A stretch of DNA of 58,231 nt from an uncultured Anaerolineae bacterium (GTDB lineage Bacteria; Chloroflexota; Anaerolineae; VGOG01), in the NCBI GenBank assembly GCA_964461615.1, contig CAYWWC010000001.1, positions 1 to 58,231 of the forward strand. Reading direction: 5' to 3'. Below, one piece after another: positions 28,532 to 44,510 of the stretch. The position numbers and the translations under genes are program-made. The notes under the pieces were generated by a model. The model did not search any database. It was not told the DNA's origin and saw only the letters and a list, made by a program, of their open reading frames with translations. The number at the start of each line of letters is the position of its first letter. Position 1 is the first letter of the stretch.

Positions 28532-30178
28532 ATGACAAACAAGTTACGGATCATTCCCCTGGGAGGACTGGGGGAAGTAGGCAAAAACATGATGGTTTTG
28601 GAGTATGGCAAAAACATCATCATCATTGACTCGGGGATCATGTTCCCAGAGAACGACATGCTGGGCGTTGATTTCATCATCCCTGACTTCAACTATCTCA
28701 TGGACAAGAAGGACATGGTGCGGGGCATCATCATCACCCACGGCCACGAGGACCACGTGGGGGGGCTTCCCTACTTGCTTCAAGAGATCAAGGCTCCCAT
28801 CTACGCCACCAAGCTGACCCGTGGTCTGGCGGAGGTGAAGCTGAAAGAGCGTCACCTGCTGGACGAGGTGGAGCTGAATACCATCCAGGCTGGCGATTGT
28901 GTAACCCTGGGGCCTTTTCGCATCGAGTTCTTCCACGTCTGTCACAGCATCCCCGATGGGGTGGGGTTGGCTATCGAAACGCCGGTGGGCCTGGTGGTCC
29001 ACTCCGGCGACTTCAAGTTTGACTATACCCCGGTGGACGGCAAGCCCCCCGATTTTGCCAAGCTGGCAGAATTGGGAGGGCGAGGGGTGCTGGTGCTGAT
29101 GTCCGACAGCACCAACGCCGAACAGCCGGGGGCTACCGCCTCGGAGAGGGCCATTGACGAGGCCTTCGACAAGGTTTTCCAGAGTGCGGAAGGTCGCGTC
29201 ATCGTAGCCACCTTTGCTTCCCTCATCTCCCGCGTCCAACAGGTGGTCAACGCCGCCGTCCGCCACGAGCGCAAGGTGGCCATCGCTGGCTACAGCATGG
29301 TCAAGAACGTGGGTATGGCCCAGGAGTTGGGATACCTGTCCATTCCGCCAGGTGTCCTGATTGAGCTGAATAATGTTGACAAGCTGCCCCACCACAAGGT
29401 GGTCATCATAGCCACGGGTACGCAGGGTGAGCCCTCTTCGGCCCTGGCCCGCATGTCCTTTGGGCGGCACCGTCAGATCAGGGTCGTTCGCGGCGACACG
29501 GTCGTCATCTCGGCCCACGCTATCCCAGGCAACGAGGAGATGATCGGTCGCATCATCAATCGCCTTCTCCAACAGGGGGCCAACGTGATGTACGAGCAGA
29601 TCGCTCCGGTGCACGTCTCAGGCCACGCCAGCCAGGATGAACAGAGACTGCTTGTCCACCTGATCAAACCCAGGTACTTTGTGCCCATTCACGGCGAGCT
29701 ACGCCACCTGATCATGCATGCTCGGATCGCCCAGGAAATGGCCGTCCCCGCTGCCAACACCATGGTCGTGGAGAACGGCTACGTCCTGGAGTTCGACGAG
29801 GAGGGCGGCCGAATCGGCGAGCGGATACCCGGCGGTTACGTCTTCGTTGACGGGTCGGGGGTGGGCGATATTGGCCCGGTGGTGATGCGCGATCGGGAGA
29901 CCCTGGCCAGTGCAGGCTTCGTGGTAGCGGTGATCAAGCTGGACAAAGAGACAGGTCAGCCTGCTGGGCGGCCGGAGATCATCTCGCGGGGCTTCGTCTA
30001 CGTGCGGGACTCGGAGGAGCTAATCGAGCGGGCTCAGGACAAGATCCTGAAGGTTTTAGAGAGGAGCGATGGGGGGCGAGCGGGCATTAGCGATAGGGTG
30101 CGAAGCGAGTTGAGAAAGTTGTTCTACGACGAGACCAAACGCCGCCCCATGATTATGCCAGTGATCATGGAGGTGTAA
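28532..30178 (+). CDS. rnj: Ribonuclease J (metallo-beta-lactamase / beta-CASP)
   Basis: 548 aa with SD GGAGGA. LRIIPLGGLGEVGKNMMV, HGHEDHVGG and the beta-CASP and C-terminal domain layout are typical of RNase J. Confidence 0.9.
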   Translation: MTNKLRIIPLGGLGEVGKNMMVLEYGKNIIIIDSGIMFPENDMLGVDFIIPDFNYLMDKKDMVRGIIITHGHEDHVGGLPYLLQEIKAPIYATKLTRGLAEVKLKERHLLDEVELNTIQAGDCVTLGPFRIEFFHVCHSIPDGVGLAIETPVGLVVHSGDFKFDYTPVDGKPPDFAKLAELGGRGVLVLMSDSTNAEQPGATASERAIDEAFDKVFQSAEGRVIVATFASLISRVQQVVNAAVRHERKVAIAGYSMVKNVGMAQELGYLSIPPGVLIELNNVDKLPHHKVVIIATGTQGEPSSALARMSFGRHRQIRVVRGDTVVISAHAIPGNEEMIGRIINRLLQQGANVMYEQIAPVHVSGHASQDEQRLLVHLIKPRYFVPIHGELRHLIMHARIAQEMAVPAANTMVVENGYVLEFDEEGGRIGERIPGGYVFVDGSGVGDIGPVVMRDRETLASAGFVVAVIKLDKETGQPAGRPEIISRGFVYVRDSEELIERAQDKILKVLERSDGGRAGISDRVRSELRKLFYDETKRRPMIMPVIMEV

Positions 30179-30212
30179 CGAACCCGAAAACGTGTTGGGT
30201 GGTTATTACTCA

Positions 30213-30330
30213 GGCTGGCGGTTGAAACCGCGCCTGGAGAGCTGAAGCTGACTGTCCACCTACGTGGACAGCGACGTCCACGCAGGTGGACGCCCGGCTG
30301 AAAGCCCTGGAGAGGCGATTTCAATCGCGG
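30213..30330. repeat. Cluster of short GC-rich REP-like hairpins
   Basis: TGTCCAC-ctac-GTGGACA (30253-30270) and CGTCCAC-gcag-GTGGACG (30275-30292) lie in tandem, with GCGGTT..AACCGC and GCGATT..AATCGC minihairpins alongside. Confidence 0.6.
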
Positions 30331-30367
30331 TAAAGGATAGCCTGAGCAGTTACGTTGGGTGTGACAG

Positions 30368-30399
30368 AAGCGCGCTAGACAGTAGCGCGCTTTTGTGTT
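30368..30399 (+). terminator. Intrinsic terminator, overlapped by an extended -10 (TGTTATAAT, 30396-30404) for the next gene
   Basis: AAGCGCGCTA-gacag-TAGCGCGCTT is followed by TTTGTGTT. Confidence 0.65.
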
Positions 30400-30458
30400 A
30401 TAATCGGGTTGTCGGCTCAAAGTGCCCGGTAGCAGAAGGCAAGAAAGGCAGGTGCATC

Positions 30459-32201
30459 ATGAAAAAGATGATTCGTTTCGGCCTCTTGTTTCTCGTCATC
30501 CTCGTTTTCATCTCCCCGGTGGTCGGGGCTGAGGGGCCGCCCACCGCTCAAGGGCCGCCCACCATTACCGAGGTGGAGTCCCAGGTGACCGTCCTGGAGG
30601 ACTCTAGCCTCGATGTCAAGTACCGCTTGACCTTCTGGGAGAACGAGACGCGGGACAAGATCACCACTATGGGCCCCTTCGACGCCGGCCATCGCATTCT
30701 GGACGCCCACATTGAGCACGACGGAACGCAGACGACCGTGAGCCTGAGCAGCAAGGGCGGCGGCTTCTACACCGTTCCCTTCGGTCTGACCACTAAGGCT
30801 GATCGGGAGTACACCGTCCAGGTGCACTGCCGGGTAGAGCGTGCCCTGGACATAACAGAGATTGACGGGGTGGAGCATCGGGTGCTGGCCTGGGCGCCCA
30901 TCCAGTGGAGTCTGTCCATTGGCGAGCAGATCGTGACCTTCATTCTGCCCATCGAGCTGCCGGCCGACGTCACCCAGCCGGAGCAGGTGACCGATGGGCT
31001 GGTGGACCGGGCGGCTATCGTGGTTGACGACGCCAACGTCTCCTCTTTCGACCGCTGGGTCTACTATCCCACCCCCGATGAGGCCACTGGCAAGAACTGG
31101 CTCTCCATCTACATCTCTAAGAAGAGCGTTCCCCCAAACTACCACTTCACCCCCAAAGTCTATATCCCCGGCCGCTACTTCGCCGAGCTGCCGGTCGAGA
31201 CCGTCGCTCCCGTCGAGGAGTTCGCTCCCACCGAGGAGCCTGAGCCTGCACCCAGCCTTTCCCTCCTGCCCTTTCTATGTATCTTCGGACTTCTGGGGCT
31301 GTTCGTAGCCGGGTTCATCATCTTCATCATCTTCCGCCGGGTTTCGCCCAAGGCTGCGCCGGAGGAGTACGAGGCCCCGGAGATCGAGATCGAGACCTTT
31401 GCACAGCCGGGCATGGTGCCAGACCTGGAAGCCATCGAGGCGGCTCTCTACATCGGCGACACGGCCAAGGTAATCACCCTGGTGATCATGGCCCTCTCCC
31501 AGCGGGACGTGCTGACGGTGCTCAACAAGCGGCCTCTGCAACTGGAGGTGACCAACCCCGACTTGGAGATGGCTGACTACGAGCGGGCACTGGTGACGGG
31601 CATCGCCGACGACGGCACTTTGCCCCAGTCAACCATCGAGCGGGTGATGGCCTTGCTCTTGGCCCAGTTGCAGACCAAGATGTGGAACGCCGACCCTGAG
31701 GCCACCCGCGATACCTATCGGCGGCGGGCCGAGGATGCCTGGGACGACTACCGCCGACAGGATCCCGCCCGCCGCTGGGGCTGGGGTCACCCGACGTTCC
31801 CCTGGATCATCCTCGCCCCCAGCTACCGGCCCTACCGCCCTGTGCCCGTCGCCGTCCGTCGCGGCCCCGCGGCTCTGGACACGCTGCGCGAATCCCCGTT
31901 GGTCGGCGCCGCCGATCAGATGGCTGGCGTATTAGAGGGCGTGGCCGACAACATCACTACCCGTGCCGAGGGGCTGGCCACATCCGCCACTCACTTCCTG
32001 GACCGCGTGGCCGGGCGGGAGGATGCCGGCTACGACGCCTGCCACTCCGCGTGCCACAGCGCCTGTCACTCCGCCTGCGTCCACGATGCTTGCCACAGCG
32101 CCTGCGTCCACGACGCCTGTCACAGCGCCTGCCACAGCGCCTGCGTCTGCCACAGTGCCTGTCACTCCGCCTGTCACAGCGCCTGTGTGAGCAGCTTTTA
32201 G
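30459..32201 (+). CDS. Single-pass membrane protein (DUF2207-like layout) with a C-terminal (CHSA)n Cys/His-repeat tail
   Basis: ATG at 30459 gives signal peptide MKKMIRFGLLFLVILVFISPVVGA. A TM helix LLPFLCIFGLLGLFVAGFIIFIIF is followed by RRVSPK, which by positive-inside places the C-terminus in the cytoplasm. The tail reads ACHSACHSACHSACVHDACHSACVHDACHSACHSACVCHSACHSACHSACVSSF. Confidence 0.75.
   Translation: MKKMIRFGLLFLVILVFISPVVGAEGPPTAQGPPTITEVESQVTVLEDSSLDVKYRLTFWENETRDKITTMGPFDAGHRILDAHIEHDGTQTTVSLSSKGGGFYTVPFGLTTKADREYTVQVHCRVERALDITEIDGVEHRVLAWAPIQWSLSIGEQIVTFILPIELPADVTQPEQVTDGLVDRAAIVVDDANVSSFDRWVYYPTPDEATGKNWLSIYISKKSVPPNYHFTPKVYIPGRYFAELPVETVAPVEEFAPTEEPEPAPSLSLLPFLCIFGLLGLFVAGFIIFIIFRRVSPKAAPEEYEAPEIEIETFAQPGMVPDLEAIEAALYIGDTAKVITLVIMALSQRDVLTVLNKRPLQLEVTNPDLEMADYERALVTGIADDGTLPQSTIERVMALLLAQLQTKMWNADPEATRDTYRRRAEDAWDDYRRQDPARRWGWGHPTFPWIILAPSYRPYRPVPVAVRRGPAALDTLRESPLVGAADQMAGVLEGVADNITTRAEGLATSATHFLDRVAGREDAGYDACHSACHSACHSACVHDACHSACVHDACHSACHSACVCHSACHSACHSACVSSF
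32040..32186 (+). repeat. 12-bp-period TGY-CAC-(TCC/AGY)-GCN coding repeat (CHSA units)
   Basis: There are 11 CHSA units interrupted by CVHDA and CV variants. Ser is encoded by both TCC and AGC/AGT. Confidence 0.9.
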
Positions 32202-32234
32202 GGCATTGATGCACTGGACGGAACGGCAGCACGT

Positions 32235-33326
32235 ATGTTGGGTGAAATAGAAATGCGAATAGCCACAGCCTACCAACAATCACTTTTCCCAGACCTGACT
32301 GCCGAGTTCCCTTCCACCCGCTATCAAGGCAGCAAAGCGAAGCTCGTTGATTGGATCTGGGAGCAAATCGCCGATTTAGATTTCACGACCTGCCTGGACG
32401 CCTTTGGCGGCACGGGTGCGGTGGCCTACCGCTTGAAGCAGGCGGGTAAGCGGGTTACGTATAACGACTTGCTCCGTTTCAACTATTACATTGGTCTGGC
32501 GCTGATTGAGAACAACCAGGTACGCCTCAGCCCTGAGGAAGTGGACTGGCTTCTCATGAGGCATCCAGAGATCGCGTATCCGCGTTTCGTCCAGGACAGT
32601 TTCCCTGACATCTATTTCACTGATGAGGAGAATGCCTGGATTGACCAGACGATCACCAACATTCGCCAACTCACCGATCCATACAAGTCTGCTTTGGCGT
32701 TCTTCGCCCTGTGTCAAGCCTGCATCATCAAGCGGCCCTATAATCTGTTTCATCGAAAAAACCTCTATATTCGCCTCGCAGAAGTGGAGCGCTCGTTTGG
32801 AAACAAGACCACCTGGGATAGGCCCTTCGAGGAGTGGTTTCACATTTTCGCCATAGAGGCCAATCGAGCCGTCTTTGACAATGGCCAGGTGAATCGTGCC
32901 CTTAATTGCGGGGCTGTTGATGTGCCGGGTGAGTATGATCTGGTTTATATAGACACACCTTACATCTCCAAAAAGGGCACGCCTGTTGACTACTTTGCGT
33001 TCTATCACTTCTTAGAGGGTTTGACAATGTACGATGAGTGGGGCAAACATATAGACCTCAAATCAAAGCATCGCCGTTTGAAGCTGCAACCAAGTGAGTG
33101 GACAGATAAGAGACGAATTCGCGCGGCTTTTGACCAGTTGTTTCGCAGATATCAGGAGAGTATTCTGGTCGTCTCTTATCGCAGCGATGGCATACCTTCT
33201 GAGTCAAAGCTGGTGTCTTTGCTCAAGCGATACAAGCGCCACGTGCGCGCTGAGCATTTTGGCCCATACAAATACGTCCTGTCCACCAACACCAAGTCTA
33301 AAGAAATTCTTCTGATCGGCACATAA
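32235..33326 (+). CDS. N6-adenine DNA methyltransferase (Dam/D12 class), partner of the adjacent EcoRV-family endonuclease
   Basis: STRYQGSKAKLVDWI, CLDAFGGTGAV (AdoMet motif) and LVYIDTPY (DPPY-type catalytic motif) are present. Confidence 0.85.
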   Translation: MLGEIEMRIATAYQQSLFPDLTAEFPSTRYQGSKAKLVDWIWEQIADLDFTTCLDAFGGTGAVAYRLKQAGKRVTYNDLLRFNYYIGLALIENNQVRLSPEEVDWLLMRHPEIAYPRFVQDSFPDIYFTDEENAWIDQTITNIRQLTDPYKSALAFFALCQACIIKRPYNLFHRKNLYIRLAEVERSFGNKTTWDRPFEEWFHIFAIEANRAVFDNGQVNRALNCGAVDVPGEYDLVYIDTPYISKKGTPVDYFAFYHFLEGLTMYDEWGKHIDLKSKHRRLKLQPSEWTDKRRIRAAFDQLFRRYQESILVVSYRSDGIPSESKLVSLLKRYKRHVRAEHFGPYKYVLSTNTKSKEILLIGT

Positions 33327-33349
33327 CTCTACCGAGGAGTTGAGCAGAG

Positions 33350-34138
33350 ATGATAGTAGATGATTTCAGAGAGAGCCTGTTGAGCCACCTGGACGAGTTC
33401 GGACGCACCCTTGCCACGGATGCCGGGGATTGGGTCGTCAAAGGGTTCATAGATGTCTACCGGAATATCTACACCATCTCGGTAGATACGAAGGTTGTAT
33501 CCAAGATCATCGAGTTGATGCTCTTTCCGGTCATCTCCCAGTTTGCAGCCGAACACGATTACAAAATGGTGCTCAGCGAATACCAGAATCACTATCCAGA
33601 CATCAGTTTCATGGCACCAGATGGGACGAAGATCGCCTTCGACCTCAAGAGTACATATCGCAGGAGTGCAAATACAGTGAGTGGTTTCACGCTTGGTGCA
33701 TTCACAGGCTATTTCCGCCGGCGGCAATCAACCAAGAATATCACCTTCCCGTACGAACAGTACGCCGCGCACTTTGTCCTGGGCATCATCTACAGCCGCA
33801 GCGACGAGGCTGTGGATGAGCGCCGGGTCTATACACTGGAGGACCTCCGGGACATTGTGTCGGTGGTCAAGGACTTCACTCTTCTGCTTCAGGAGAAGTG
33901 GCGAATTGCCAATGACCGGCCTGGGAGTGGAAACACGAAAAACATCGGTTCGGCGAGAAATATCGAGGCACTCGTTGAGGGTAAGGGGCCATTTGCCCGA
34001 TACGGAGAAGAAGTGTTCGACGACTACTGGATGAATTACTTGACAAATGATATGGCACTAGCCATTGATTCGGCTATCCCTTATCGAAACCTTGAGGATT
34101 ATTGGGAGTGGCGTGATCGTGTCGGGCGGCGAAGATAG
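33350..34138 (+). CDS. Type IIP restriction endonuclease, EcoRV family (probable GATATC specificity)
   Basis: 262 aa with SD GAGGAG. It aligns along its length with my recollection of R.EcoRV: VDTKVVSKIIELMLFPVISQFAAEHDY vs SDTKVLSTIFELFSRPIINKIAEKHGY; QNHYPDISF vs QNHYPDFTL; KIAFDLKSTY vs KIAIDIKTTY (PD..D-x-K catalytic site); GSGNTKNIGS vs GSGNTTNIGS. Confidence 0.85.
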   Translation: MIVDDFRESLLSHLDEFGRTLATDAGDWVVKGFIDVYRNIYTISVDTKVVSKIIELMLFPVISQFAAEHDYKMVLSEYQNHYPDISFMAPDGTKIAFDLKSTYRRSANTVSGFTLGAFTGYFRRRQSTKNITFPYEQYAAHFVLGIIYSRSDEAVDERRVYTLEDLRDIVSVVKDFTLLLQEKWRIANDRPGSGNTKNIGSARNIEALVEGKGPFARYGEEVFDDYWMNYLTNDMALAIDSAIPYRNLEDYWEWRDRVGRRR

Positions 34139-34164
34139 AATGCGCCGCGGTAAGGATCGCTTAA

Positions 34165-34404
34165 ATGGACTACAGTGGCAATGCCATCCACGCCAACGAC
34201 CGCAGCGGTGATCCAGCCTTCGCCCTCGATGACTACTACCTGACCTCCAGCTCGGCGGCCATTGACGCCGGAGTGGATGCTGGCGTCACGACGGACATTG
34301 ACGGCGACGCCCGTCCCTGGGGTGAAGGCTATGACATCGGCGCTGACGAGCTCAGGCAGCGGTACGTCTACCTTCCTCTCGTGATGAAGAACCTCGCTCA
34401 CTGA
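34165..34404 (+). pseudogene. 3' fragment of a beta-helix (pectate-lyase-fold) surface protein gene retaining the YLPLVMK C-terminal motif
   Basis: DPAFALDDYYLTSSSAAIDAGVDAGVTTDIDGDARPWGEGYDIGADE is the usual C-terminal cap of large beta-helix proteins. Only 79 aa remain, there is no SD, and an in-frame TAA lies directly before the ATG. Confidence 0.6.
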
Positions 34405-34461
34405 CACGCAATGGCACGCGTTCTATGGATGGTGGCAACTTCGATAATAAGGAGGCATTCG

Positions 34462-35994
34462 ATGAAGATCAGGTATCTTCTGTTTGCACTGGCTGTGGGT
34501 GTAGGGACAGCTCTTGCTTTGATGGGGATGCTGGCCGCTGCCGGCTGGCTCTATGATCTGGCGAGGGGCGAGCAGCACGTGAGCATCCGCGGTCAGAACG
34601 CCGCTGACTGGATGGGGGGCAGCCTCGCCAGCGCCGACATCAACGGCGACGGTTACGACGACCTGATCCTGGGCGCAACCGGTGTTGAAGCCGGCTCCAT
34701 CTCTAATGCGGGCGCTGCCTACGTCCTCTTTGGGCGTCCCGAAATTCCGGCCGGTATGGACATAGGCGACGCGGCGGACGTCACTTTCCTGGGAGCGGCG
34801 ACAAACGACTACACCGGGCAGATTGTCGCCAGCGGCAACTTCAACGGGGATGGATATGCCGATTTGCTCATCGCTTCTCGATGGGCCGACGTGGTCTCCG
34901 GAAGTGGCGTGATCACGGACGCTGGAAAGGTGTATCTGGTTTTGGGGCGTCCTGCCTTTTCTCCCACGGTACACCTCTCCACAGTCGCCGATGTGATTTT
35001 CAATGGAGCTGAGGTGAACGATTTCACCGGCCAGGGGTTGGGCACCGGCGACATCAACAACGATGGTTACGATGACTTCATCATCGGGGCATATCACTGG
35101 CACGACTCGAGAGGGATAATCTACGTCCTCTTGGGCCCTCCGCCCCTCACCGCGACTGTTGACATCAGCGGCATCGCCGATGCGACTTTCCAGGGTATAT
35201 CAGAGAATGACAGCCTGGGCTATTCCCCAGCCAGCGGCGACTTCAACGGCGATGGCTGTGATGACCTGTTCCTGGGCGCAATGAACGCCAGCTCGGCGGG
35301 GCGGCAACGGGCCGGAATCGTCTATGTGGTGTTAGGTTGCGAAATACCTTACGGCGCCCACACTATCAGCGACGCAGCTGACCTGACCCTCCAGGGGGGT
35401 GAGGAAGACCGGACTGGCTGGAGCCTGGCCAGCGGGGACGTCAACAACGACGGCTACGACGATCTCCTCGTTGCGGCTCCCTTTGCCGACCTGGGCGGAG
35501 ACGATTCAGGGGCTGTTTACGTGGTCTTGGGCGGACAGGACCTGGCCGGGACTTTGGGTATCAGGACTGCTGCCAGTATCACCATCACAGGTGAGGCGGC
35601 CGGGGATAACCTGGGACGTTGGGGGTTGAGTAGTGGGGATGTCAATGGCGACGGCTACGACGACGTGATCATTGGTGCTCTCTACGCTGACCCTTCTCCT
35701 TCACGCCCTGATGCTGGCAAAGCCTACGTGGTATTGGGAAGGCCAGACTTTCCTCAGACGATCCCGTTGAGCACCGCTGCCGATGTGACTATCCTTGGGG
35801 CAGCGGCCGGCGACAGACTTGGGGATGGCGTGGGCAGCGGTGATCTCAACCACGATGGCCGCAAAGAAATCATTGTCGCGGCGCCTGCTGCCGACCCTGT
35901 CAGCGGTCGGGAGGATGCCGGCCAGGCTTATGTTTTCTACTACGGACTTTCGAAGACATATCTATACCTTCCGCTGGTGCTGAAGGGCCAGTGA
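34462..35994 (+). CDS. FG-GAP/VCBS (integrin-alpha-like) repeat protein with a C-terminal YLPLVLK motif
   Basis: ATG at 34462 lies 6 nt after AAGGAGG and is followed by an N-terminal TM/signal segment. Eight or more repeats follow the pattern G.AGD..G.S.ASGD.NGDGYDDL.IGA. Confidence 0.9.
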   Translation: MKIRYLLFALAVGVGTALALMGMLAAAGWLYDLARGEQHVSIRGQNAADWMGGSLASADINGDGYDDLILGATGVEAGSISNAGAAYVLFGRPEIPAGMDIGDAADVTFLGAATNDYTGQIVASGNFNGDGYADLLIASRWADVVSGSGVITDAGKVYLVLGRPAFSPTVHLSTVADVIFNGAEVNDFTGQGLGTGDINNDGYDDFIIGAYHWHDSRGIIYVLLGPPPLTATVDISGIADATFQGISENDSLGYSPASGDFNGDGCDDLFLGAMNASSAGRQRAGIVYVVLGCEIPYGAHTISDAADLTLQGGEEDRTGWSLASGDVNNDGYDDLLVAAPFADLGGDDSGAVYVVLGGQDLAGTLGIRTAASITITGEAAGDNLGRWGLSSGDVNGDGYDDVIIGALYADPSPSRPDAGKAYVVLGRPDFPQTIPLSTAADVTILGAAAGDRLGDGVGSGDLNHDGRKEIIVAAPAADPVSGREDAGQAYVFYYGLSKTYLYLPLVLKGQ

Positions 35995-36077
35995 GATAGG
36001 CGCGGTAGTAAAATATCAGTCAGACGCCACTTGCCACAAGCTGGCGGGATGATAGACAGGGGGTAAAGATCCTGAAA

Positions 36078-36698
36078 TTGCAACGTTCAACCATAAAACA
36101 CTTGATATCTATTGCTCTTGTTCTCTGCCTGAGCGCACTGCTGGCAAGTGTCGTCTATGCAGGTATTACCAGCAACGAGCACATGAGCGACACCCACCAC
36201 GGGCCGTCAGTGACCCAATTCCCCTCGGGGATATCTGCCGTCTACGTGGTCTTCGATTACAGCGATATGCATAACGAGGAGATCACTATAAAGGTTTGGA
36301 GCCCGATCGGGGAGCTTCTCTTCGAGCATATTCAGGTTTACTCAGACTCGGGCACGAAGTCCATCGAGGCCCCAGGGCCGGAAGGCGGAGCTTTCCCCGA
36401 TGGCCTGTATGCCACCAACTTTTACAGAGGCATGCTTTCCTACAAAACTCTCATCTGGGCCGTGGGCGAAGTGACACTCCCTACCCCCACGGCGACGGGT
36501 ACAGCTACGCCCACCGCGACTCCGACAACTACGCCGACTAGCACACCCACACCCACGCCCACACCAACTGCCACCGCTACTCCGACCGACACACCCATTC
36601 CGACACCAACTGCCACCGCCACAACAACTCCAACCGATACAATAACTCCAATTCCCAGTTACGAAGTTTGCCTGCCGATCATCGTGAAGAACTATTGA
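36078..36698 (+). CDS. Secreted small beta-domain protein with a ~60-aa Thr/Pro stalk and a C-terminal CLPIIVKNY motif
   Basis: TTG start gives signal peptide IKHLISIALVLCLSALLASVVYAG. The stop lies 5 nt before the radical SAM start codon. Confidence 0.7.
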   Translation: MQRSTIKHLISIALVLCLSALLASVVYAGITSNEHMSDTHHGPSVTQFPSGISAVYVVFDYSDMHNEEITIKVWSPIGELLFEHIQVYSDSGTKSIEAPGPEGGAFPDGLYATNFYRGMLSYKTLIWAVGEVTLPTPTATGTATPTATPTTTPTSTPTPTPTPTATATPTDTPIPTPTATATTTPTDTITPIPSYEVCLPIIVKNY

Positions 36699-36703
36699 GA
36701 ATC

Positions 36704-38092
36704 ATGAACGATAGACTGCAACAATTCGCCAGCAGTTTCATAGAAAGCACCCGCGACTACATCTTCGTCCGTCCCGAGGACAATCTGCTCATCCTGCGGC
36801 CCAACCGGGTGCACAACCTGAACGCCACCGCCACGGTGATGCTCAAGGCCCTCTACGAGCGTCAGCCGCTGGATGTCGAGGCCATCGTAGCCGAGCTCGC
36901 GGAGCGCTACGGTACACCTCCGGAGCGGATCGAGGAGGACATGGAGAAGCTACTCCAGAGCCTCTCGTTGGTGCTCCAGGATAGGTCGGGCTGCGCTCCG
37001 GCGGTGAAAACCACTCCCTTCGGCAGCCACGAGAGGAAATACCCCGTCCTGTCCGAGATTGCCGTGACCTACCGCTGCCAGAACCGCTGTTTCTTCTGCT
37101 ACGCCAGCTCCCCCGACCGGGGCCGCCAGGTACCGGAGATGACCACCGACGAGGTTAAGCTGGTGCTGGATAAGATCATGACTCAGGCCAGAGTGCCCAC
37201 CGTCTCCTTCACAGGCGGCGAACCTACTCTCCGTAAAGACCTGCCGGAGCTGATAGCCCACGCGAAGAGTTTGGGAATGAGGGCCAATCTTATCAGCAAC
37301 GGCATCAAGTGTGGCGACGCGGATTACGTGGCCACATTGGTCGAGGCGGGGCTGGACTCGGCCCAGATCAGCCTGGAGGCGGGGGAGGCTGCCATCCACG
37401 ATGAGGTGGTGGCCCACCCAGGGGCCTTCAAGCGCACGATGCAGGGAGTGCGCAACCTGCGGGCGGCCGACATTCACACCCACACCAACACCACCATCAA
37501 CCAAAAGAACCGGCAGGCCCTGCCAGACCTCATTGATCTTCTGGCCGAGATGGGCATGGCGTACCTCTCCATGAACATGGTCATTCGCACCGGCGGAGCG
37601 GTGGGTGTGCCCGACATCAATTATCAGGCTATCGGCGATCTGGTGCTCTCCTTCAAGGCCAGGGCCGAGGAGCGGGGGATGCGCTTCGTGTGGTACTCGC
37701 CCGTGCCCTACTGCCTCTTCAATCCTGCCCAGCACGGCCTGAGCTCCCCGTCCTGTTCAGCGGCCGAGGGGCTGTTGTCCATCGCCCCCGACGGGGCGGT
37801 GCTGCCCTGCTCCAGCTTCGAGGAGGGCATCGGCAACCTGCTCACCGAGGACTTCGCCACCCTCTGGAATCGGCGGTCGGCTCGCTACTGGCGGGACAAG
37901 GAGTTCCTGCCCCCAGGTTGTCAGGAGTGCGAGCTGGCCCACATCTGCTGCGGAGCCTGCCCCCTCTACTGGGATGAGCAGGGCACCTTCGCTGAGATAG
38001 CTCCCCACATGACCAAGACCTCGGCCTGGGACCGACTGACCTGGAGGTTGAAAAGGCGTTACCTGGGGAAGGTGAAGGGGGTGGGGATATAA
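36704..38092 (+). CDS. Radical SAM / SPASM-domain peptide-modifying enzyme with a fused N-terminal PqqD-like RiPP recognition element
   Basis: CQNRCFFC (CxxxCxxC) with GGEPTL. The SPASM region reads CSAAEGLLSIAPDGAVLPC ... CQECELAHICCGAC. The N-terminal ~95 aa (FVRPEDNLLILRPNRVHNLNATATVMLKAL...VEAIVAELAERYGTPPERIEEDMEKLLQSL) have the PqqD pattern. An alternative TTG start at 36668 would overlap the upstream gene. Confidence 0.85.
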   Translation: MNDRLQQFASSFIESTRDYIFVRPEDNLLILRPNRVHNLNATATVMLKALYERQPLDVEAIVAELAERYGTPPERIEEDMEKLLQSLSLVLQDRSGCAPAVKTTPFGSHERKYPVLSEIAVTYRCQNRCFFCYASSPDRGRQVPEMTTDEVKLVLDKIMTQARVPTVSFTGGEPTLRKDLPELIAHAKSLGMRANLISNGIKCGDADYVATLVEAGLDSAQISLEAGEAAIHDEVVAHPGAFKRTMQGVRNLRAADIHTHTNTTINQKNRQALPDLIDLLAEMGMAYLSMNMVIRTGGAVGVPDINYQAIGDLVLSFKARAEERGMRFVWYSPVPYCLFNPAQHGLSSPSCSAAEGLLSIAPDGAVLPCSSFEEGIGNLLTEDFATLWNRRSARYWRDKEFLPPGCQECELAHICCGACPLYWDEQGTFAEIAPHMTKTSAWDRLTWRLKRRYLGKVKGVGI

Positions 38093-38095
38093 CCA

Positions 38096-38126
38096 GGTGC
38101 AACGCACTTCTGAAGTGCGTTGCACC
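38096..38126. other. Perfect 14-bp-stem hairpin between the rSAM gene and the next gene
   Basis: The sequence is GGTGCAACGCACTT-ctg-AAGTGCGTTGCACC. No U-tract follows, so it is an intercistronic stem or REP rather than a canonical terminator. Confidence 0.7.
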
Positions 38127-38147
38127 TTAATCGCGAGGAGGTTCTGT

Positions 38148-39329
38148 ATGCCCCGAACAGTCTCTTTGGATCAACTCAACGATTTTCTGCTAGATAACAG
38201 GCGCAAGATTGACGCGGTGGGGCGGGAGGTGGAGGAGATCCAGGTAGGCTTCAACAGCGCCTACGTGGAGTTCAAGGCCGACCACGACGCCCAACTGGCA
38301 AGCTTGACTGTGTCGCTGTTCGAGAAGCTGGATAGCATCGGTTCAGAACTGCGAGCCCAGATAGACGAGCGGGTCGTCGAGGAGCGTCGCCTTCTGGCCG
38401 AGCGCAGGACGGAGCTGCGGGAGAAGCTGATCCCCCAGACCCAGGCGGAGGCCGACGCTGTGCTGACCCAGGCTCAAGAACAGACAAAGGCTCTGCGCCA
38501 ACTCAACCCCCGGCTGGATGAGCGCGAGGAGGCATACAAGGCTCAACTGGCCGCGTTGGAGACGAAGCTGGCCCAACTCAACGCGGAGATTTCCCAACGC
38601 TCCCGAGGTCTGGGCTTTATCATCCACTTCATCTCCGTCGCCAAACTGGACCGCCAGCGCCACCGCATCCTCGGCCAACTGGAGACCCTGGCCCGAAACC
38701 TGAAGGAAGTACGCGACGACTGGCAGACCAGCCAGCAGGAGTTCCAGACTGAACAAGAGGGCCTGCAGGGCCAGTGGCGCGAACTCAGCCTCAAGGTTGC
38801 TGAACTGAACCGGGAGCTGGCCTACCTTGACGACGAGACGCAACGAGAGGATCTGGCGATGAAACGGGCAGGCCGCCATATTCTGGACAACCTGAAGGAT
38901 CCCGTACCCTGTCCTGCTGATCTGAGGCCCGCGTTGAAAGCCATGATCGAGCTCAACGTCAAGACCGACGCCTACCAGGAGGGATTAGGGACAGTGGGAG
39001 GGCTCATCGCCCTCCTGGATAGCGTGGGGAAAGGGATGGACAGCTTCCAGGAGAGCGTAGGGGGGCTCATCGGGGAGCAGCGCATGCATAGCGAATTCCT
39101 CCCGGGGCTCAAGCTGAGACTGCCTGATTCAGCAATCGCCTTTCACAACCAATGGGATGGCTTGAGAGCTAAGATGCGTGACGATGCCCGACTATGCGCC
39201 CACCCCACGGAGTTTCTGGAAGCAGCGCGGCCGGTCATTCAGCGCGACCTGAGCAATGAGGCCGTCACCAGCATGTTCAACAGTCTCGGCCAGGCCCTGA
39301 CCGAGGCAACCGAGAAATGGAGGGGATGA
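38148..39329 (+). CDS. Coiled-coil protein of unknown function
   Basis: ATG at 38148 lies 7 nt after GAGGAGG. 393 aa, rich in heptad-like E/Q/L/R segments (LAALETKLAQLNAEISQ, LETLARNLKEVRDDWQTSQQEFQTEQEGLQGQW). Confidence 0.7.
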   Translation: MPRTVSLDQLNDFLLDNRRKIDAVGREVEEIQVGFNSAYVEFKADHDAQLASLTVSLFEKLDSIGSELRAQIDERVVEERRLLAERRTELREKLIPQTQAEADAVLTQAQEQTKALRQLNPRLDEREEAYKAQLAALETKLAQLNAEISQRSRGLGFIIHFISVAKLDRQRHRILGQLETLARNLKEVRDDWQTSQQEFQTEQEGLQGQWRELSLKVAELNRELAYLDDETQREDLAMKRAGRHILDNLKDPVPCPADLRPALKAMIELNVKTDAYQEGLGTVGGLIALLDSVGKGMDSFQESVGGLIGEQRMHSEFLPGLKLRLPDSAIAFHNQWDGLRAKMRDDARLCAHPTEFLEAARPVIQRDLSNEAVTSMFNSLGQALTEATEKWRG

Positions 39330-39330
39330 G

Positions 39331-39825
39331 ATGAAACGAACGATTTTAATGGCCGCTTTTGGGATCTCAGGAGTTCTTTTGGCCCTGGGGTTGATTTTCC
39401 TGTGCGCGGCTACCACCAATCCGGGTCGGCTGCCTCTGTCGGTGCTTCTGCTTGTCATTGGCGGAGGCGTGACCGCCTGGGCTGCCCTCACCTGGCGGCG
39501 GAATCAGCAGTTAGAGCCAGAGCGTCTGGCCGACAGCATAATTGATCTGGCACGGGCTGGCGGTGGCGCCGAGGTCAGCCTGGCCCAGATCGTAGCCGAG
39601 CTCAATGTGCCCACCGAGGCCGCCCAGCGGGCCCTCGGCGTGCTGGAGCGGAGGGGCGAGTGCCGGAGGGAGCGCAGGGCCGACAAAGATCTCTACGTTT
39701 TCCCCGGCCTGGTGGAGGTAAAGGTTGTGCGACGCTGCGCCTACTGCGGCAGCGAGTTCAGCGTCAAGACTCCTCTGCGCAAGTGTCCCAACTGCGGCGG
39801 CGAGTTGGAACTGCTGAGAGAGTAG
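39331..39825 (+). CDS. Two-TM membrane protein with a cytoplasmic wHTH-like segment and a C-terminal CxxC..CxxC zinc ribbon
   Basis: The start lies 1 nt after the previous stop (TGAGATG). TM helices are ILMAAFGISGVLLALGLIFLCAA and LSVLLLVIGGGVTAWAAL. The zinc ribbon is CAYCGSEFSVKTPLRKCPNCGG. Confidence 0.7.
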   Translation: MKRTILMAAFGISGVLLALGLIFLCAATTNPGRLPLSVLLLVIGGGVTAWAALTWRRNQQLEPERLADSIIDLARAGGGAEVSLAQIVAELNVPTEAAQRALGVLERRGECRRERRADKDLYVFPGLVEVKVVRRCAYCGSEFSVKTPLRKCPNCGGELELLRE

Positions 39826-40053
39826 AGCGGCTGATCGCTGGAACTACCTGATGTATCGCTCAGGAGGCTTCTGCCACTCAGACCCAACCGAAACTGGATC
39901 CCATATTTTAAGATTCAGGCCGTATCTAAAACAGCGTTTCTACGTTATAATAAGTAGGAAACCCTAGGCCATTGATCGACTTGCAGTAGCAAGGTATGAA
40001 TCACGATCCTTATTGCCTTGCTTTTCACCCCCGTCGGCCCGAGGAGGGCAGTG

Positions 40054-43000
40054 ATGCCGGCTTTGAAAGTATGCCTTTTTGGCTCTCCCAATATTACTTA
40101 TGATGAGGCTCCGCTCCTTATTACCTCCCAGAAAGCCCAGGCCCTATTCTACTACCTCATCTCCAATCGCCAGGCTCATTCCCGCGAGAAGTTGGCCACG
40201 CTGTTCTGGGGAGAGACCAGCGAACGCCAGGCCAAAGGTAGCCTGCGCAACACCCTCTATGAGTTGCGGCGCGACCTGACGCCAGGCAACAAGCCCGCCC
40301 AGCGACACATTTTGGCTGAAAGCAATACCCTCTGCCTTAACCCTGAGACTGATTACTGGCTGGACACCGAGGAATTCGAATCGCTGCTAGATAAAAAAGG
40401 CGAGGGTGAACGGGTCAGGATGGACAACTGGAGCAAGGCGGCGGAGCTGTATCGGGGCGATTTCCTTGAGGGTTTCATTGTCAAAGACAGCTTCGACTTT
40501 GAAGACTGGTCCTTTTTTGAGCGGGAGAGGTTGCAGAGAAGATATCTGGAGGCTCTCACTGAACTGAGCGATTATTGCGGCGGGCAGGGCGAGTACGAGA
40601 GAGCCATTACCTACGCCACTCAGATACTCAGTCGCGATAACCTTCAGGAAAACATACACCGCCAGTTGATGCGCCTCTACTACGCGGCTGGCAATCGCAG
40701 CGCGGCTCTGCGCCAGTACGAAATATGCAAGGAGGTCACAGAGCGGGAATTAGGCGCTGCTCTATTGGCCGAGACCACCACCCTCCATGAGCAGATACTC
40801 CGTCAGGAATTGGTGGAACCCCAGGCCAGGGAAATAGAAGCGTCGAGTATTGAAATCCAGTGGCAACCCCGTCCATCGCCGCTTCTCCCCTGGCCGAAGC
40901 CGGAGTATTTGAGCTCCAACCTCGTTGGTAGAGACAAGGAATACGCCCAGTTGACCCGCTATCTGGAGACCGCCAGCCAGGGAAGGAGCCAACTGGTCAT
41001 CATTGATGGCGAGGTTGGCATTGGCAAGACGCGGTTGGTACAGGAGTTGCTCGATCAGATAGAACCCGATTTTCACCTGTTGATAGGCCGGTGCTACGAG
41101 TCCGAAATGACGCTGCCATATCAGCCCTTGGTCGAGGCTCTGCGAGGCTATCTGCCAACACTGGATCTAAGCAAGCTTCAGGTATCCCGCCTTTGGCTCA
41201 GAGAAGTGAGCAAGCTGGTCCCCGAGTTGAGCGAGGCCCTGCCAGATCTCCCCAACAGTATTCCCCTAAACACCGACACGGAACGCAGCCGCTTGTTCGA
41301 GGGAGTTGTCCAGTTTTTTGTTGCTCTCTCTCGCCATCGCCCCCTGATCATCTTTATTGATGACCTCCATTGGGCCGATCAAGCGACGCTGGCCCTTCTC
41401 CAGTACCTGGCTCGCCACGTCACCAGGGAGAGGGTTCTGCTCATAGGCGCTTATCGCACTGAAGATCTGAGCGAGCCGCTGACGAATACCATGCGCAGCC
41501 TCAAGCAGGATGGCCTTCTTGCCAGGATCACCCTGCGCCGCCTCACTCTTGAGGATGTGACTACTCTGATCAGAGAGATGGCGGGCATGGAGAGCGGAGG
41601 CGAGAAATTCAGCCACAGACTGTATCAAGACACGGAGGGCAACCCCTTCTTCATCTCCGAGGTCATCCGCTCCCTCTTCGAGGAGGGCATCTTGTACCGT
41701 GACAAGCATGGCTGGACCACGGACCTCAAGGATTTCGACACCAGTTATGCTCAAATTCCGATTCCTCCCAGTGTCCGCGAGGTCGTTCAAGCCCGCCTCA
41801 ATCGTTTAGAGGACGTGAGCTACCAGGTGTTGGAGACGGCCGCAGTGTTCCGCCAGCAGTTCTACTTTGTCACCGTCAAGAGGGCTTGTGACAAAGACGA
41901 GGATGAGGCCCTGGATGCTTTCGACAAGTTGCTGCGGGCCCAGTTGATCAAAGAAGTCGAGGTAGGTATAAAGGGCAGTAGCTACGACTTCAACCATGAC
42001 AAGGTCAGGGAAGTGGCTTACCAGCAGATGAGCGGTGCCAGGTGTCAGCAAGTGCATCGGCGAGTGGGCGAAGCTCTGGAGATAGAATACCGCGATCGTC
42101 TTGATGAAGTGGTCAGCCGATTGGCCCATCACTTCACAGCGGGAGGGGACAGGGAAAGAGCTCTGAGATACTCCATCAGGGCTGGTGACAAGGCCAGAGA
42201 ACTCTATGCTAACGAGGAAGCCATCGCTTATTATCAGAGGACGCTGGAACTCGCGGAGAGTGCGGAGGAGTTGGCAACCATATACGAGGGATTGGGCGAC
42301 GTTTTTGCCCTGGTGGGAAAACACCACAACGCGATAGAGAGCTACGAATCTGTGCTGGACAGCGCGGCTGCAGGGCCGGACAAAAGGCGGGTAGCCGAGA
42401 TCCACCGCAAAATAGGCAGAGTACATGAGAGGAACGGGGGGCGCGATCTGGCCCTGGAGTGTTTTAGAACCGGCAGGCGGATCCTTGAATCCGACGGTCC
42501 CTCGCTAGAGATGGTCAGGCTGGATAGCGGCATGGCGTTCTTGAGCATTCGCCAAGGGCAATATGAGGAGGCCATTAGACTCTGCCAACAGAGCTTGGAT
42601 ATGGTAGAGAAGCTACCTGAGAACGCGGACAGCCGTAGGGAGCGGGCGAGGATATATAATAACCTGGGGTCTATTTATCTTAACTGGAGCGATTATCCCC
42701 GCGCCACCGAGCACTTCGAGAAGAGCCTGGCCATAAGAATCGAAAACGGGGACACCCACGGCACTGCCGTTCTTTACAATAACCTTGGAGTAGTCTGTGA
42801 GCACCAAGGCCACTATGATAAAGCTCTCGAATACCACCGCCAAAGTTGCGAGCTGAAGAAAGAAATCGGGGACATTTATGGACTGGCCATATCCCACACC
42901 AATCTGGGGCTGATTCTCTCCCGAAGGCAAGATTATCCTCAGGCCCTTGATCATCTGGAAGAAGCGGTGAGTATTTGTGGAGATATCGAGTGCGAATGGC

Positions 43001-43401
43001 TCTTGCCAGAAACCTATAGGATCATAGCTGAGGTTCGCCTGGATATCGGCGAAGTAACGGAAGCTCTGGAATATGGCTACGCTTCCCTTGAAAAGGCCCG
43101 CCAGACCGGCGACAAGGCCTTCGAAGGAGTGGCTCACCGGGTGTTGGGAAAGATAAAGGCCCTCGGACGCCAGCAGTGGGAAGAAGGAGAAAGGCATTTC
43201 TCAGAGAGCATAGACATGTTAAAAGCCCTGGGAAACGAACATGAACTCGGCAAGAGCTGCTATGAATTCGGACTGGTGTTGAGAGACAAAGGAGAGGTAG
43301 ACCGGGCCCGGGAACTCTTCTCCCAAGCTATTGAAATCTTCGAGAGAACAGGGGCCACCGAGAGACTCGAAAGAGCCCAAGCAGCGCGCCATCAGCTTTG
43401 A
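40054..43401 (+). CDS. SARP/AfsR-type regulator: OmpR-like wHTH + BTAD + P-loop NTPase (STAND-like) + TPR array
   Basis: ATG at 40054 lies 5 nt after GAGGAGGG. Motifs include LFWGETSERQAKGSLRNTLYELRRDL, YRGDFLEGF, Walker A GEVGIGKT and Walker B LIIFIDDLHWAD. The C-terminal ~400 aa contain TPR-like A..Y...L repeats. Confidence 0.85.
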   Translation: MPALKVCLFGSPNITYDEAPLLITSQKAQALFYYLISNRQAHSREKLATLFWGETSERQAKGSLRNTLYELRRDLTPGNKPAQRHILAESNTLCLNPETDYWLDTEEFESLLDKKGEGERVRMDNWSKAAELYRGDFLEGFIVKDSFDFEDWSFFERERLQRRYLEALTELSDYCGGQGEYERAITYATQILSRDNLQENIHRQLMRLYYAAGNRSAALRQYEICKEVTERELGAALLAETTTLHEQILRQELVEPQAREIEASSIEIQWQPRPSPLLPWPKPEYLSSNLVGRDKEYAQLTRYLETASQGRSQLVIIDGEVGIGKTRLVQELLDQIEPDFHLLIGRCYESEMTLPYQPLVEALRGYLPTLDLSKLQVSRLWLREVSKLVPELSEALPDLPNSIPLNTDTERSRLFEGVVQFFVALSRHRPLIIFIDDLHWADQATLALLQYLARHVTRERVLLIGAYRTEDLSEPLTNTMRSLKQDGLLARITLRRLTLEDVTTLIREMAGMESGGEKFSHRLYQDTEGNPFFISEVIRSLFEEGILYRDKHGWTTDLKDFDTSYAQIPIPPSVREVVQARLNRLEDVSYQVLETAAVFRQQFYFVTVKRACDKDEDEALDAFDKLLRAQLIKEVEVGIKGSSYDFNHDKVREVAYQQMSGARCQQVHRRVGEALEIEYRDRLDEVVSRLAHHFTAGGDRERALRYSIRAGDKARELYANEEAIAYYQRTLELAESAEELATIYEGLGDVFALVGKHHNAIESYESVLDSAAAGPDKRRVAEIHRKIGRVHERNGGRDLALECFRTGRRILESDGPSLEMVRLDSGMAFLSIRQGQYEEAIRLCQQSLDMVEKLPENADSRRERARIYNNLGSIYLNWSDYPRATEHFEKSLAIRIENGDTHGTAVLYNNLGVVCEHQGHYDKALEYHRQSCELKKEIGDIYGLAISHTNLGLILSRRQDYPQALDHLEEAVSICGDIECEWLLPETYRIIAEVRLDIGEVTEALEYGYASLEKARQTGDKAFEGVAHRVLGKIKALGRQQWEEGERHFSESIDMLKALGNEHELGKSCYEFGLVLRDKGEVDRARELFSQAIEIFERTGATERLERAQAARHQL

Positions 43402-43502
43402 CGGTCTCCCCATTGAACCTACCCCCTTAGCATTGATCCTCCCCATAATCCTCAAAGCCCTAACCCACCCCTAACTTGGACAAGCCAGAACCAAGTTCCC
43501 CG

Positions 43503-44186: not shown

Positions 44187-44510
44187 ATGAAAAAGACACT
44201 TTGGTACATCTTTAGTTTGGCGCTGATTCTCGGTCTCTTGTTAAGCGTTAATCTGGCCGAGGGCCTTGCTTTGTTCGAGAACGTCGGGATCATTGAGGGC
44301 GATTTCTCCGCTGGGATCATCGAGGGCGACTTCTCCGCGGGAATCATCGAGGGCGACTTCTCTGCAGGGATCATCGAGGGCGACTTCTCCGCAGGGATCA
44401 TCGAGGGTGACTTCTCCGCGGGAATCATCGAGGGCGACTTCTCTGCCGGGATCATCGAGGGCGACTTCTCTGCAGGAATCATCGAGGGCGACCTGGCAAC
44501 TTCTGCATAG
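44187..44510 (+). CDS. Exported acidic repeat protein/propeptide: signal peptide + 7 x GIIEGDFSA + GIIEGDLATSA
   Basis: ATG lies 9 nt after AAGGAGG. The Sec-type signal is MKKTLWYIFSLALILGLLLSVNLA. It is followed by eight tandem 27-bp units that differ only at synonymous third positions. Confidence 0.75.
   Translation: MKKTLWYIFSLALILGLLLSVNLAEGLALFENVGIIEGDFSAGIIEGDFSAGIIEGDFSAGIIEGDFSAGIIEGDFSAGIIEGDFSAGIIEGDFSAGIIEGDLATSA
44286..44495 (+). repeat. Tandem 27-bp coding repeat, 7.8 copies
   Basis: Units start at 44286, 44313, 44340, 44367, 44394, 44421, 44448 and 44475. Variants are GGG/GGA, ATT/ATC, GGC/GGT, GAT/GAC, TCC/TCT and GCT/GCG/GCA/GCC. Confidence 0.95.

Follow-up and report, generated by a model that had tools for sequence, protein, structure and literature searches.

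A radical SAM/SPASM enzyme of Anaerolineae conserved with three partner genes, and the Cys/His-repeat tail of a membrane protein as its candidate substrate

Among radical S-adenosylmethionine (SAM) enzymes with a SPASM domain, QhpD makes several Cys thioethers in a protein substrate, QhpC, and SkfB, AlbA, CteB and PapB form Cys thioethers in peptides (PMC10114670). An enzyme of this architecture is encoded in a stretch of 58,231 nucleotides (nt) from an uncultured bacterium of the class Anaerolineae (phylum Chloroflexota; contig CAYWWC010000001.1 of assembly GCA_964461615.1), the whole of which is called here the window. The enzyme carries in addition a fused PqqD-like domain, the recognition element (RRE) of peptides made on the ribosome and modified after translation (RiPPs). 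Together with genes for a coiled-coil protein, a zinc-ribbon protein and a 580-residue membrane protein ending in a Cys/His repeat, hereafter the tail, it makes up a conserved four-gene system, widespread in Anaerolineae. We infer, with a probability of about 0.6, that this is a protein-maturation system in which the tail is the substrate of the enzyme. The closest known kind is that of the Cys-Xaa-Xaa-Xaa repeat radical SAM target systems, the chemistry of which is, to our knowledge, uncharacterised. The NCBIfam scan returned TIGR04117, described as 'Cys-Xaa-Xaa-Xaa repeat radical SAM target protein', and TIGR04114, a Cys-rich repeat model; TIGR04115, which we take to be the maturase model of the same system, is absent from the families listed for the enzyme. 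Literature searches on the motif, on DUF2207 plus radical SAM, on the TIGR accessions and on SPASM plus Anaerolineae found no paper on either the Cys-Xaa-Xaa-Xaa repeat system or the present one.

The locus resembles the Cys-Xaa-Xaa-Xaa systems in having a long run in which Cys recurs at mostly every fourth residue, and, in most related loci, a candidate target gene beside that of a radical SAM enzyme. Unlike in those systems, it is a 580-residue membrane protein, and not a small peptide, that bears the repeat, as its cytoplasmic tail; the repeat unit is A-C-H-S with an invariant His, and the enzyme forms a family of its own, with a fused RRE and two dedicated accessory proteins. The ACGX-repeat system likewise pairs an Ala-Cys four-residue repeat with a radical SAM/SPASM enzyme; here, however, the repeat is ACHS or ACVHD and is borne by a large membrane protein, and the model of the ACGX maturase (TIGR04340) gives 106.8 bits (E=1.3e-30) against a cut-off of 400. 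QhpD resembles the present enzyme, as proposed here, in that a radical SAM/SPASM modification is placed on a protein retained in a larger assembly, and not on a secreted peptide (PMC10114670). Yet the QhpD model (TIGR03906) reaches 11.3 bits versus 453, qhpA, qhpB and qhpC are missing, and the substrate would here be membrane-anchored and repetitive.

The maturases of sactipeptides and ranthipeptides (SkfB, AlbA, CteB/SCIFF, PapB/freyrasin) also combine RRE, radical SAM and SPASM domains and act on Cys-rich cores, PapB reportedly in an iterative way on repeated Cys-containing motifs. In contrast to their gene clusters, no conserved short precursor, protease or exporter accompanies the present enzyme, and the product would stay on a membrane protein. 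The scores, 86 bits versus 300 (SkfB, TIGR04403), 85 versus 625 (StsB, NF045574) and 20.6 versus 340 (PapB, NF047865), are all far below cut-off; a likeness to this class persists in the working principle. In PqqE/PqqD/PqqA a PqqD-type recognition domain again serves a SPASM radical SAM enzyme; here PqqD is fused to the enzyme, the target lacks a Glu/Tyr pair, no pqq genes are found in the window or in related loci, and the PqqE model (TIGR02109) gives 113.7 bits against 381. As to the membrane protein, it has the signal peptide, beta-sandwich ectodomain, transmembrane helix and cytoplasmic domain of the DUF2207 and TIGR04222 families, in which low-complexity C-terminal tails rich in Gly or Cys are common. 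It is set apart from them by a tail that is an invariant Cys/His repeat and goes together with a radical SAM enzyme, and the usual LemA partner (PMC12631010) was not seen in this system.

The four open reading frames (ORFs) named in a preliminary description of the window were confirmed in position. The enzyme gene (36704-38092, plus strand) encodes 462 residues, and three domains were identified by Pfam models: PqqD (PF05402, residues 30-87, 43.2 bits versus a cut-off of 23.4), Radical_SAM (PF04055, residues 121-280, 86.4 versus 29.5) and SPASM (PF13186, residues 351-410, 32.7 versus 21.5). The NCBIfam SPASM model TIGR04085 adds 47 bits over a cut-off of 27. Matches that pass curated thresholds in this way are not due to chance, and the enzyme is a member of the radical SAM superfamily, by both motif and core profile, of the SPASM family and of the PqqD-like family; the PqqD-family NCBIfam models match it below their own equivalog cut-offs. 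The RRE corresponds to nt 36791-36964, the CxxxCxxC motif to nt 37076-37099, and the SPASM Cys region to nt 37712-37960, all on the plus strand. The CxxxCxxC motif reads CQNRCFFC (residues 125-132) and is invariant across 20 homologues, as are the Cys residues 337, 351, 369, 406, 409, 415, 416 and 419. Of these, C351-x12-G-x4-C369 and C406-x2-C409-x5-C415-x3-C419 fit the pattern CX12GX4C ... CX2CX5CX3C. The preliminary description had rightly read this gene as an RRE-radical SAM-SPASM enzyme of the peptide- or protein-modifying type with a CxxxCxxC cluster and an N-terminal PqqD-like domain. It had also credited it with a full SPASM Cys set; the last canonical ligand is not evident in the enzyme sequence and may have been replaced, since no Cys was seen beyond residue 419. 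In one related locus (L038:9281-10720) the enzyme features an insertion of about 17 residues (FVVSASRLSSTKSQPNG) right after the conserved SSPDRG, near the radical SAM cluster loop; this could reflect either misassembly or an insertion that the enzyme tolerates.

Homologues of the enzyme were searched in 5.8 billion proteins, and 2,362 matches were found at E≤1e-10. The best 120 of them are all full-length, 67-91% identical and composed of the same three domains; where the source is named, it is Anaerolineae or Chloroflexota, with the exception of one Planctomycetes label. A scan of one genome per species confirmed at least 550 relatives, from which 80 loci with enzymes of 52-94% identity were retained, nearly all from Anaerolineae or other Chloroflexota and a few from Armatimonadota. 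Relatives of solved structure are remote (SkfB, E=5.5e-23; PqqE, 2.5e-21; CteB, 4.3e-10); SkfB ranks first and PqqE second, and these nearest solved relatives are peptide crosslinkers. The top full-length NCBIfam scores are those of AhbD (134.4 bits versus 500), TIGR04053 (118 versus 395) and PqqE. No NCBIfam equivalog is thus near its cut-off, and the enzyme therefore belongs to an uncurated family. The heme-pathway SPASM enzymes were rejected on these grounds (AhbC, 114.7 versus 650, and NirJ, 106.9 versus 515, in addition to AhbD), and are further disfavoured by the fusion of the PqqD domain to the enzyme and by the lack of conserved pathway genes nearby. The anaerobic sulfatase maturase model (TIGR03942) matches the SPASM part only, with 23 bits versus 349; moreover an RRE is present, and no conserved sulfatase lies nearby. 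Hence a characterised family with some other substrate, be it a sulfatase maturase or a cofactor pathway enzyme, as considered beforehand, did not emerge at any such family's cut-off.

Neighbouring genes were compared in 82 sources, i.e. the window and 81 distinct genome loci (enzyme identity 52-94%). Partners were counted by tblastn of the window proteins against the related loci, and all ORFs of at least 25 residues lying between 5 kb upstream and 7 kb downstream of the enzyme were clustered all-against-all. The coiled-coil protein was detected in 76 of the 81 loci, directly 3' of the enzyme in most and 1-3.5 kb away in four (L002, L028, L035 and L039), and the zinc-ribbon protein, encoded next, in 62, most of the remaining loci being truncated contigs. 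The clustering exposed in addition a plus-strand protein of about 580-600 residues, the C-terminus of which is near-identical everywhere, with a consensus including (D/S)(A/N)CHSACHSAC(V/D/H/N). The conservation of the four genes and of their order is thereby established, as is the domain content. No conserved small ORF was found beside the enzyme in this set, in line with the earlier observation that no classical short precursor is adjacent; a hidden one was dismissed too, as the small clusters are off-frame shadows of the four genes. Glycosyltransferases, mevalonate kinase, SelA and TsaD were rejected as parts of the system, being limited to one subclade (L044-L081). In about 20 loci of that subclade a SelA-like (selenocysteine synthase) gene and tsaD lie some 5 kb downstream of the enzyme on the minus strand, a proximity that we tentatively take as clade synteny and not as a functional link.

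In the window the fourth gene resides at 30459-32201 on the plus strand, outside the region covered by the preliminary description, and its product is the conserved Cys-rich candidate substrate. The ORF spans 30264-32201. ATG 30459 (MKKMIRFGLLF...) is the most likely start, supported by a promoter-like site at 30376-30404 on the plus strand (TAGACA-17-TATAAT, TG-extended, 11 of 12 positions), a consensus match that is the best in the interval 30000-40200. Sequence, an AlphaFold2 model and the position of the homologues describe a single-pass membrane protein of 580 residues, in which a signal peptide is followed by a beta-sandwich ectodomain (residues 35-237), a transmembrane helix, a cytoplasmic winged-helix-like and helical region, and the tail. 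The transmembrane segment LSLLPFLCIFGLLGLFVAGFIIFIIF (31257-31334, plus strand; residues 267-292, helix 270-294 in the model) is immediately followed by RR..K, and by the positive-inside rule the C-terminal part is predicted to be cytoplasmic. The ectodomain is modelled with a predicted local distance difference test (pLDDT) score of 80-94 and resembles in structure both ribophorin I/Ost1 and the N-terminal domain of M1 aminopeptidases. Family matches are weak: the DUF2207 N-terminal domain (PF09972) gives 17.3 bits, below the cut-off of 24.4 (E=0.0057), and TIGR04222, spanning the transmembrane and cytoplasmic parts, E=0.015, also below cut-off; precomputed annotation assigns PF09972 to two homologues (P0132 and P0134). 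We know of no established function for DUF2207 proteins. One of them has been tied to stress tolerance in Streptococcus mutans (PMC10457818).

The tail proper (32028-32198, plus strand) is 57 residues long, contains 13 Cys and 11 His, and is proposed, from its sequence and conservation, as the core that is modified. Its Cys residues are spaced by 4, 4, 4, 5, 4, 5, 4, 4, 2, 4, 4 and 4 positions, and CX3CH and CX4CH motifs overlap along it. Across 129 distinct sequences of the C-terminus, conservation is 95% or higher at almost every position of the tail; the 70 residues ahead of it are nearly free to vary, apart from a sparse A-x6-E-x10-E pattern of one Ala and two Glu. A core of 48 residues is identical in 23 loci, among which nucleotide identity averages 0.80, with a minimum of 0.67. 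All nucleotide differences are synonymous, AGC/TCG serine switches included, and selection therefore acts at the protein level on every residue of the tail, and the pattern is no artefact of repetition in the DNA. This purifying selection is extreme. Near-absolute conservation of a 57-residue Cys/His repeat, alongside enzymes only 52% identical, is unusual in itself.

Only 22 proteins were found with the full-length 580-residue protein as query, probably because the candidate list was saturated by repeat words; the loci scans give the real numbers. The tail alone retrieved 18 proteins from 1.84 billion representative proteins, most with the same architecture and some with mixtures of ACHD and ACHS. 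Variants include P0267, with a doubled ectodomain and an ACHS/ACHD tail, and P0278, with a (C-Y-D-S)n tail. In another protein, P0141, the same ectodomain is fused to an N-terminal Ser/Thr kinase and the Cys/His tail is missing. Compared with the TIGR04114 and TIGR04117 models, P0278 scores 23.2 bits, above the TIGR04114 cut-off of 20, and P0267 gives E=0.044.

Linkage of tail gene and enzyme was monitored from both sides. Starting from the enzyme, 65 of the 73 sources that could be assessed have the tail gene upstream in the same orientation. The gap is at most 200 nt in 53 of the 82 sources, several with overlapping stop and start codons, 0.2-1 kb in 4, and 1-9.5 kb in 8, the window (4,502 nt) among them; in 8 the gene was not seen within 2-10 kb, and in 9 its position could not be assessed. 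Loci without the tail gene contain no other Cys-rich genes. For the reverse test 80 metagenome loci were anchored on ectodomain and juxtamembrane motifs, the tail being excluded from the anchor. The tail ends all 75 genes that have a complete 3' end, and the enzyme follows in 50 of the 62 loci with at least 2 kb of downstream sequence, within 200 nt in 44 of these 50; it is absent within 3.3-6 kb in the other 12. In one complete genome (L002, CP070818.1) an ABC transporter operon lies between the enzyme and coiled-coil genes, and neither a tail gene nor one for the zinc-ribbon protein turned up within 8 kb, which looks like rearrangement or degeneration of the system.

The two downstream partners were already assigned to the system in the preliminary description, an assignment that their conservation bears out. 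The coiled-coil protein (38148-39329, plus strand; 393 residues) is cytoplasmic and all-helical. Its gene is preceded by an AGGAGG ribosome-binding site, its model consists of long helices (pLDDT 91), and two Cys, C255 and C350, are near-invariant. No consistent Pfam family was assigned to it, and a LemA-like or other known fold was rejected because matches are generic (Rad50, MukB, SMC, chemoreceptors; best E=3.8e-3). The zinc-ribbon gene (39331-39825, plus strand; 164 residues) starts 1 nt past the stop of its neighbour. The protein has two N-terminal hydrophobic, presumably transmembrane, segments. It further contains a winged helix that is weakly MarR-like, and a zinc ribbon of the C4 type (CxYCG...CPxCG) with invariant C136, Y138, C139, G140, C152, P153, C155 and G156; zinc-ribbon families are matched in 24 of 25 members. 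Profile comparison does not favour the winged helix as a second RRE or as kin of the cytoplasmic domain of the tail protein (hhalign probabilities 7% and 2%, respectively), and both ideas were rejected. Related RNA contigs from lake water cover the enzyme and both downstream genes, which attests the presence of RNA and not its level. RNA contigs identical to the window correspond to 35842-35993 and 37291-37441, and come from a metatranscriptome of the same study as the best-matching DNA run.

If the tail is the substrate, maturation could proceed as follows. The PqqD-like domain would dock on the cytoplasmic C-terminal region of the 580-residue protein; the radical SAM core would abstract hydrogen from a carbon, of the backbone or of a side chain, in each four- or five-residue unit; and the SPASM auxiliary clusters would assist the joining of that carbon to the sulfur of a neighbouring Cys. 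Iteration along the C-H-x-x units of the tail would lead to small thioether rings, at most 13, arranged as a ladder, the His being left free for metal. Enzyme, tail and both partners are predicted to face the cytoplasm, tail and enzyme sharing a compartment because the transmembrane helix is followed by RR..K; the coiled-coil and zinc-ribbon proteins would most likely serve as a membrane scaffold for the enzyme, or as binding partners of the tail once it is matured. By analogy with the domain architecture, the nearest structural relatives and the known precedents, a Cys thioether is judged the likeliest product once the tail is accepted as substrate, as a tentative assignment held at somewhat less than even odds. 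More speculative, and at odds of about one in five unlikely, is the view that the Cys/His tail of this envelope-spanning protein becomes a protein-derived cofactor, either a rigid multi-thioether or a Cys-His crosslinked ladder, which binds metal or, in view of the CX3CH and CX4CH motifs, even heme and carries redox equivalents or signals at the cytoplasmic face, forming with its partners a hitherto unknown membrane machine common to the class.

Several observations weigh against this maturation model. The proposed chemistry is deduced from family resemblance only. The enzyme falls below the cut-off of every curated thioether maturase (SkfB, PapB, QhpD), and the top full-length NCBIfam scores belong, by a small margin, to heme-pathway enzymes (AhbD, 134 versus 500). 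The window tail by itself matches no NCBIfam model even at E≤10, and is modelled with low confidence (pLDDT 31-42). No classical leader is evident, because only the sparse conserved pattern precedes the tail. Linkage is incomplete, with six to eight enzyme loci lacking the tail gene in the 2-10 kb upstream and 12 tail loci lacking the enzyme, and in the window a distance of 4.5 kb separates the pair, which is probably transcribed separately. Finally, the invariant His beside every Cys fits metal binding or His-centred chemistry equally well.

This last point is also the basis of the best of the alternatives, according to which the tail is indeed the substrate and the chemistry is other than thioether formation: a C-C crosslink from an aromatic residue (triceptide-like, at H-S-A, H-D-A or H-S-N), a link from Cys to His or to an aromatic residue, heterocycles derived from Cys, or epimerisation. 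Nearly every Cys has a His after it that is just as invariant, variation being found mainly at the two positions after this His (S/D and A/N); one related tail, the (CYDS)n of P0278, has Tyr in place of His; and SPASM enzymes make cyclophanes and ethers as well (PMC10114670). Against it, matches to cyclophane maturases are marginal (YhhB, 15 bits, SPASM part), and thirteen invariant Cys are hard to account for as mere spacers. Such chemistries, taken together, are regarded as unlikely, though worth keeping in view.

Less probable still, the enzyme may act on one of the two downstream proteins, coiled-coil or zinc-ribbon, or else on a cofactor or other small molecule. The tail protein would then be a mere syntenic neighbour with a metal-binding tail. 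The trio of enzyme, coiled-coil and zinc-ribbon genes persists where the tail gene is displaced or unseen, the coiled-coil protein has two near-invariant Cys, C255 and C350, and the leading heme-pathway scores would suit a cofactor. The fused PqqD-type RRE, however, argues for a peptide or protein as substrate, and no conserved cofactor-pathway genes were found nearby. The junctions of tail gene and enzyme, overlapping or within 200 nt in 53 sources of the forward test and 44 loci of the reverse one, are the tightest linkage in the neighbourhood, and the pairing of radical SAM enzymes with Cys-repeat targets is a pattern already established by bioinformatics.

The preliminary description had correctly argued for a protein-sized target, and had chosen the adjacent 206-residue secreted protein (36078-36698, plus strand), the enzyme being supposed to crosslink the Cys of its C-terminal tag. 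Its observations on this gene are confirmed. The stop lies 5 nt ahead of the enzyme ATG (36704), a gap that suggests co-transcription, and the product has a hydrophobic, signal-like segment at the N-terminus, a stalk of Thr and Pro, and a tail ending in ...SYEVCLPIIVKNY (..EVCLPIIVKNY), the only one with Cys among the copies of the C-terminal LP[LIV]3K motif found in the window. The choice itself does not survive comparison of neighbourhoods, which upholds the downstream partners and not the proposed substrates. The 206-residue protein was detected in 1 of the 81 loci, L038, and there the Cys is replaced by Tyr (EVYLPIILKNY). Locus L003, with an enzyme 94% identical, has a different gene at this position, and an RNA contig of a relative about 93% identical, from a lake-water metatranscriptome (run X21), lacks the 206-residue gene. 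A single Cys is, moreover, a poor fit for an enzyme conserved class-wide at 52-94% identity. The 206-residue protein is accordingly a very improbable substrate.

The gene is rather cargo of a lineage-specific insertion of 4.5 kb that separates the tail gene from the enzyme in the window. All genes of the insertion are on the plus strand. The first two encode a D12-class N6-adenine methyltransferase (32235-33326; MethyltransfD12, E=2.4e-16) and an EcoRV-family endonuclease (33350-34138; Endonuc-EcoRV, E=3.6e-100). This EcoRV-type restriction-modification pair (32235-34138) had no tblastn match in the related loci L001-L082 and is not part of the system. A 79-residue ORF (34165-34404) follows, then the FG-GAP protein (34411-35994), found in 1 of the 81 loci, again L038, and the 206-residue protein. 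The 79-residue ORF is the 3' remnant of a choice-of-anchor Q gene whose 561-residue secreted beta-helix product is intact in L003 (L003:8319-10004), where it precedes the enzyme; the gene was probably truncated upon arrival of the restriction-modification cassette. A RelE/ParE-like toxin-antitoxin pair (73 and 86 residues; L003:7714-8182) lies ahead of the intact gene, at the junction of tail gene and enzyme, and another methyltransferase occupies this junction in L038. In the X21 contig, position 34382 is joined to 36703 with 14 other bases between them; in that relative the choice-of-anchor Q gene is directly ahead of the enzyme and co-transcribed with it, and neither the FG-GAP nor the 206-residue gene is present. 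Since relatives hold different cargo there, the junction is an insertion hot spot of this clade. Adjacency can be a misleading guide to a precursor when mobile insertions intervene; here a restriction-modification cassette and genes of secreted proteins come between the enzyme and its candidate substrate.

Four ORFs of the window (34165-34404, 34411-35994, 36078-36698 and 43331-43474) share a C-terminal ..Y(L/V)(Y/C)LP(L/I)(I/V)(L/V/M)K.. ending, often after a Thr/Pro stalk, and in 57-5330 and 5395-11646 the same LP-type motif is found close to the end. It was matched by none of the NCBIfam or Pfam models, and looks like a sorting or anchoring signal of secreted proteins in this lineage. The 47-residue ORF at 43331-43474, which overlaps the end of a regulator gene and terminates in LALILPIILKALTHP, may be the remnant of another motif-bearing gene, or due to chance.

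That regulator (40018-43401), of 1127 residues with SARP/BTAD, AAA and TPR parts, was found in five close relatives; in one further locus an AAA/TPR protein, unrelated to it, gave a weak match. Downstream of it, 44187-44510 encodes a signal-peptide protein with eight tandem GIIEGDFSA repeats, and 44718-47462 a 914-residue secreted protein with no family match, both kept in only 3-4 close relatives. The repeat protein was the other substrate put forward earlier, as a small secreted repeat protein on the same strand 6 kb downstream, and is the least credible of all, being limited to 4 of the 81 loci, all close relatives, devoid of Cys, endowed with a signal peptide, and separated from the enzyme by a regulator gene itself limited to close relatives. 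Both named substrates are thus rejected, for lack of neighbourhood conservation and, in the 206-residue protein, because of the Cys-to-Tyr change.

The tail provides a testable candidate substrate for an orphan family of RRE-radical SAM-SPASM enzymes found in at least 550 species-level genomes, mostly of Anaerolineae, which abound in sediments, in seawater and in wastewater reactors. If the protein-derived cofactor were real, this would be the first case in which an RRE-dependent radical SAM enzyme modifies an integral membrane protein. The finding may also open a first way to the function of a DUF2207-like protein. Should the tail prove to be modified, RRE-guided radical chemistry of the RiPP type would come to include the tail that a full-length membrane protein exposes to the cytoplasm.

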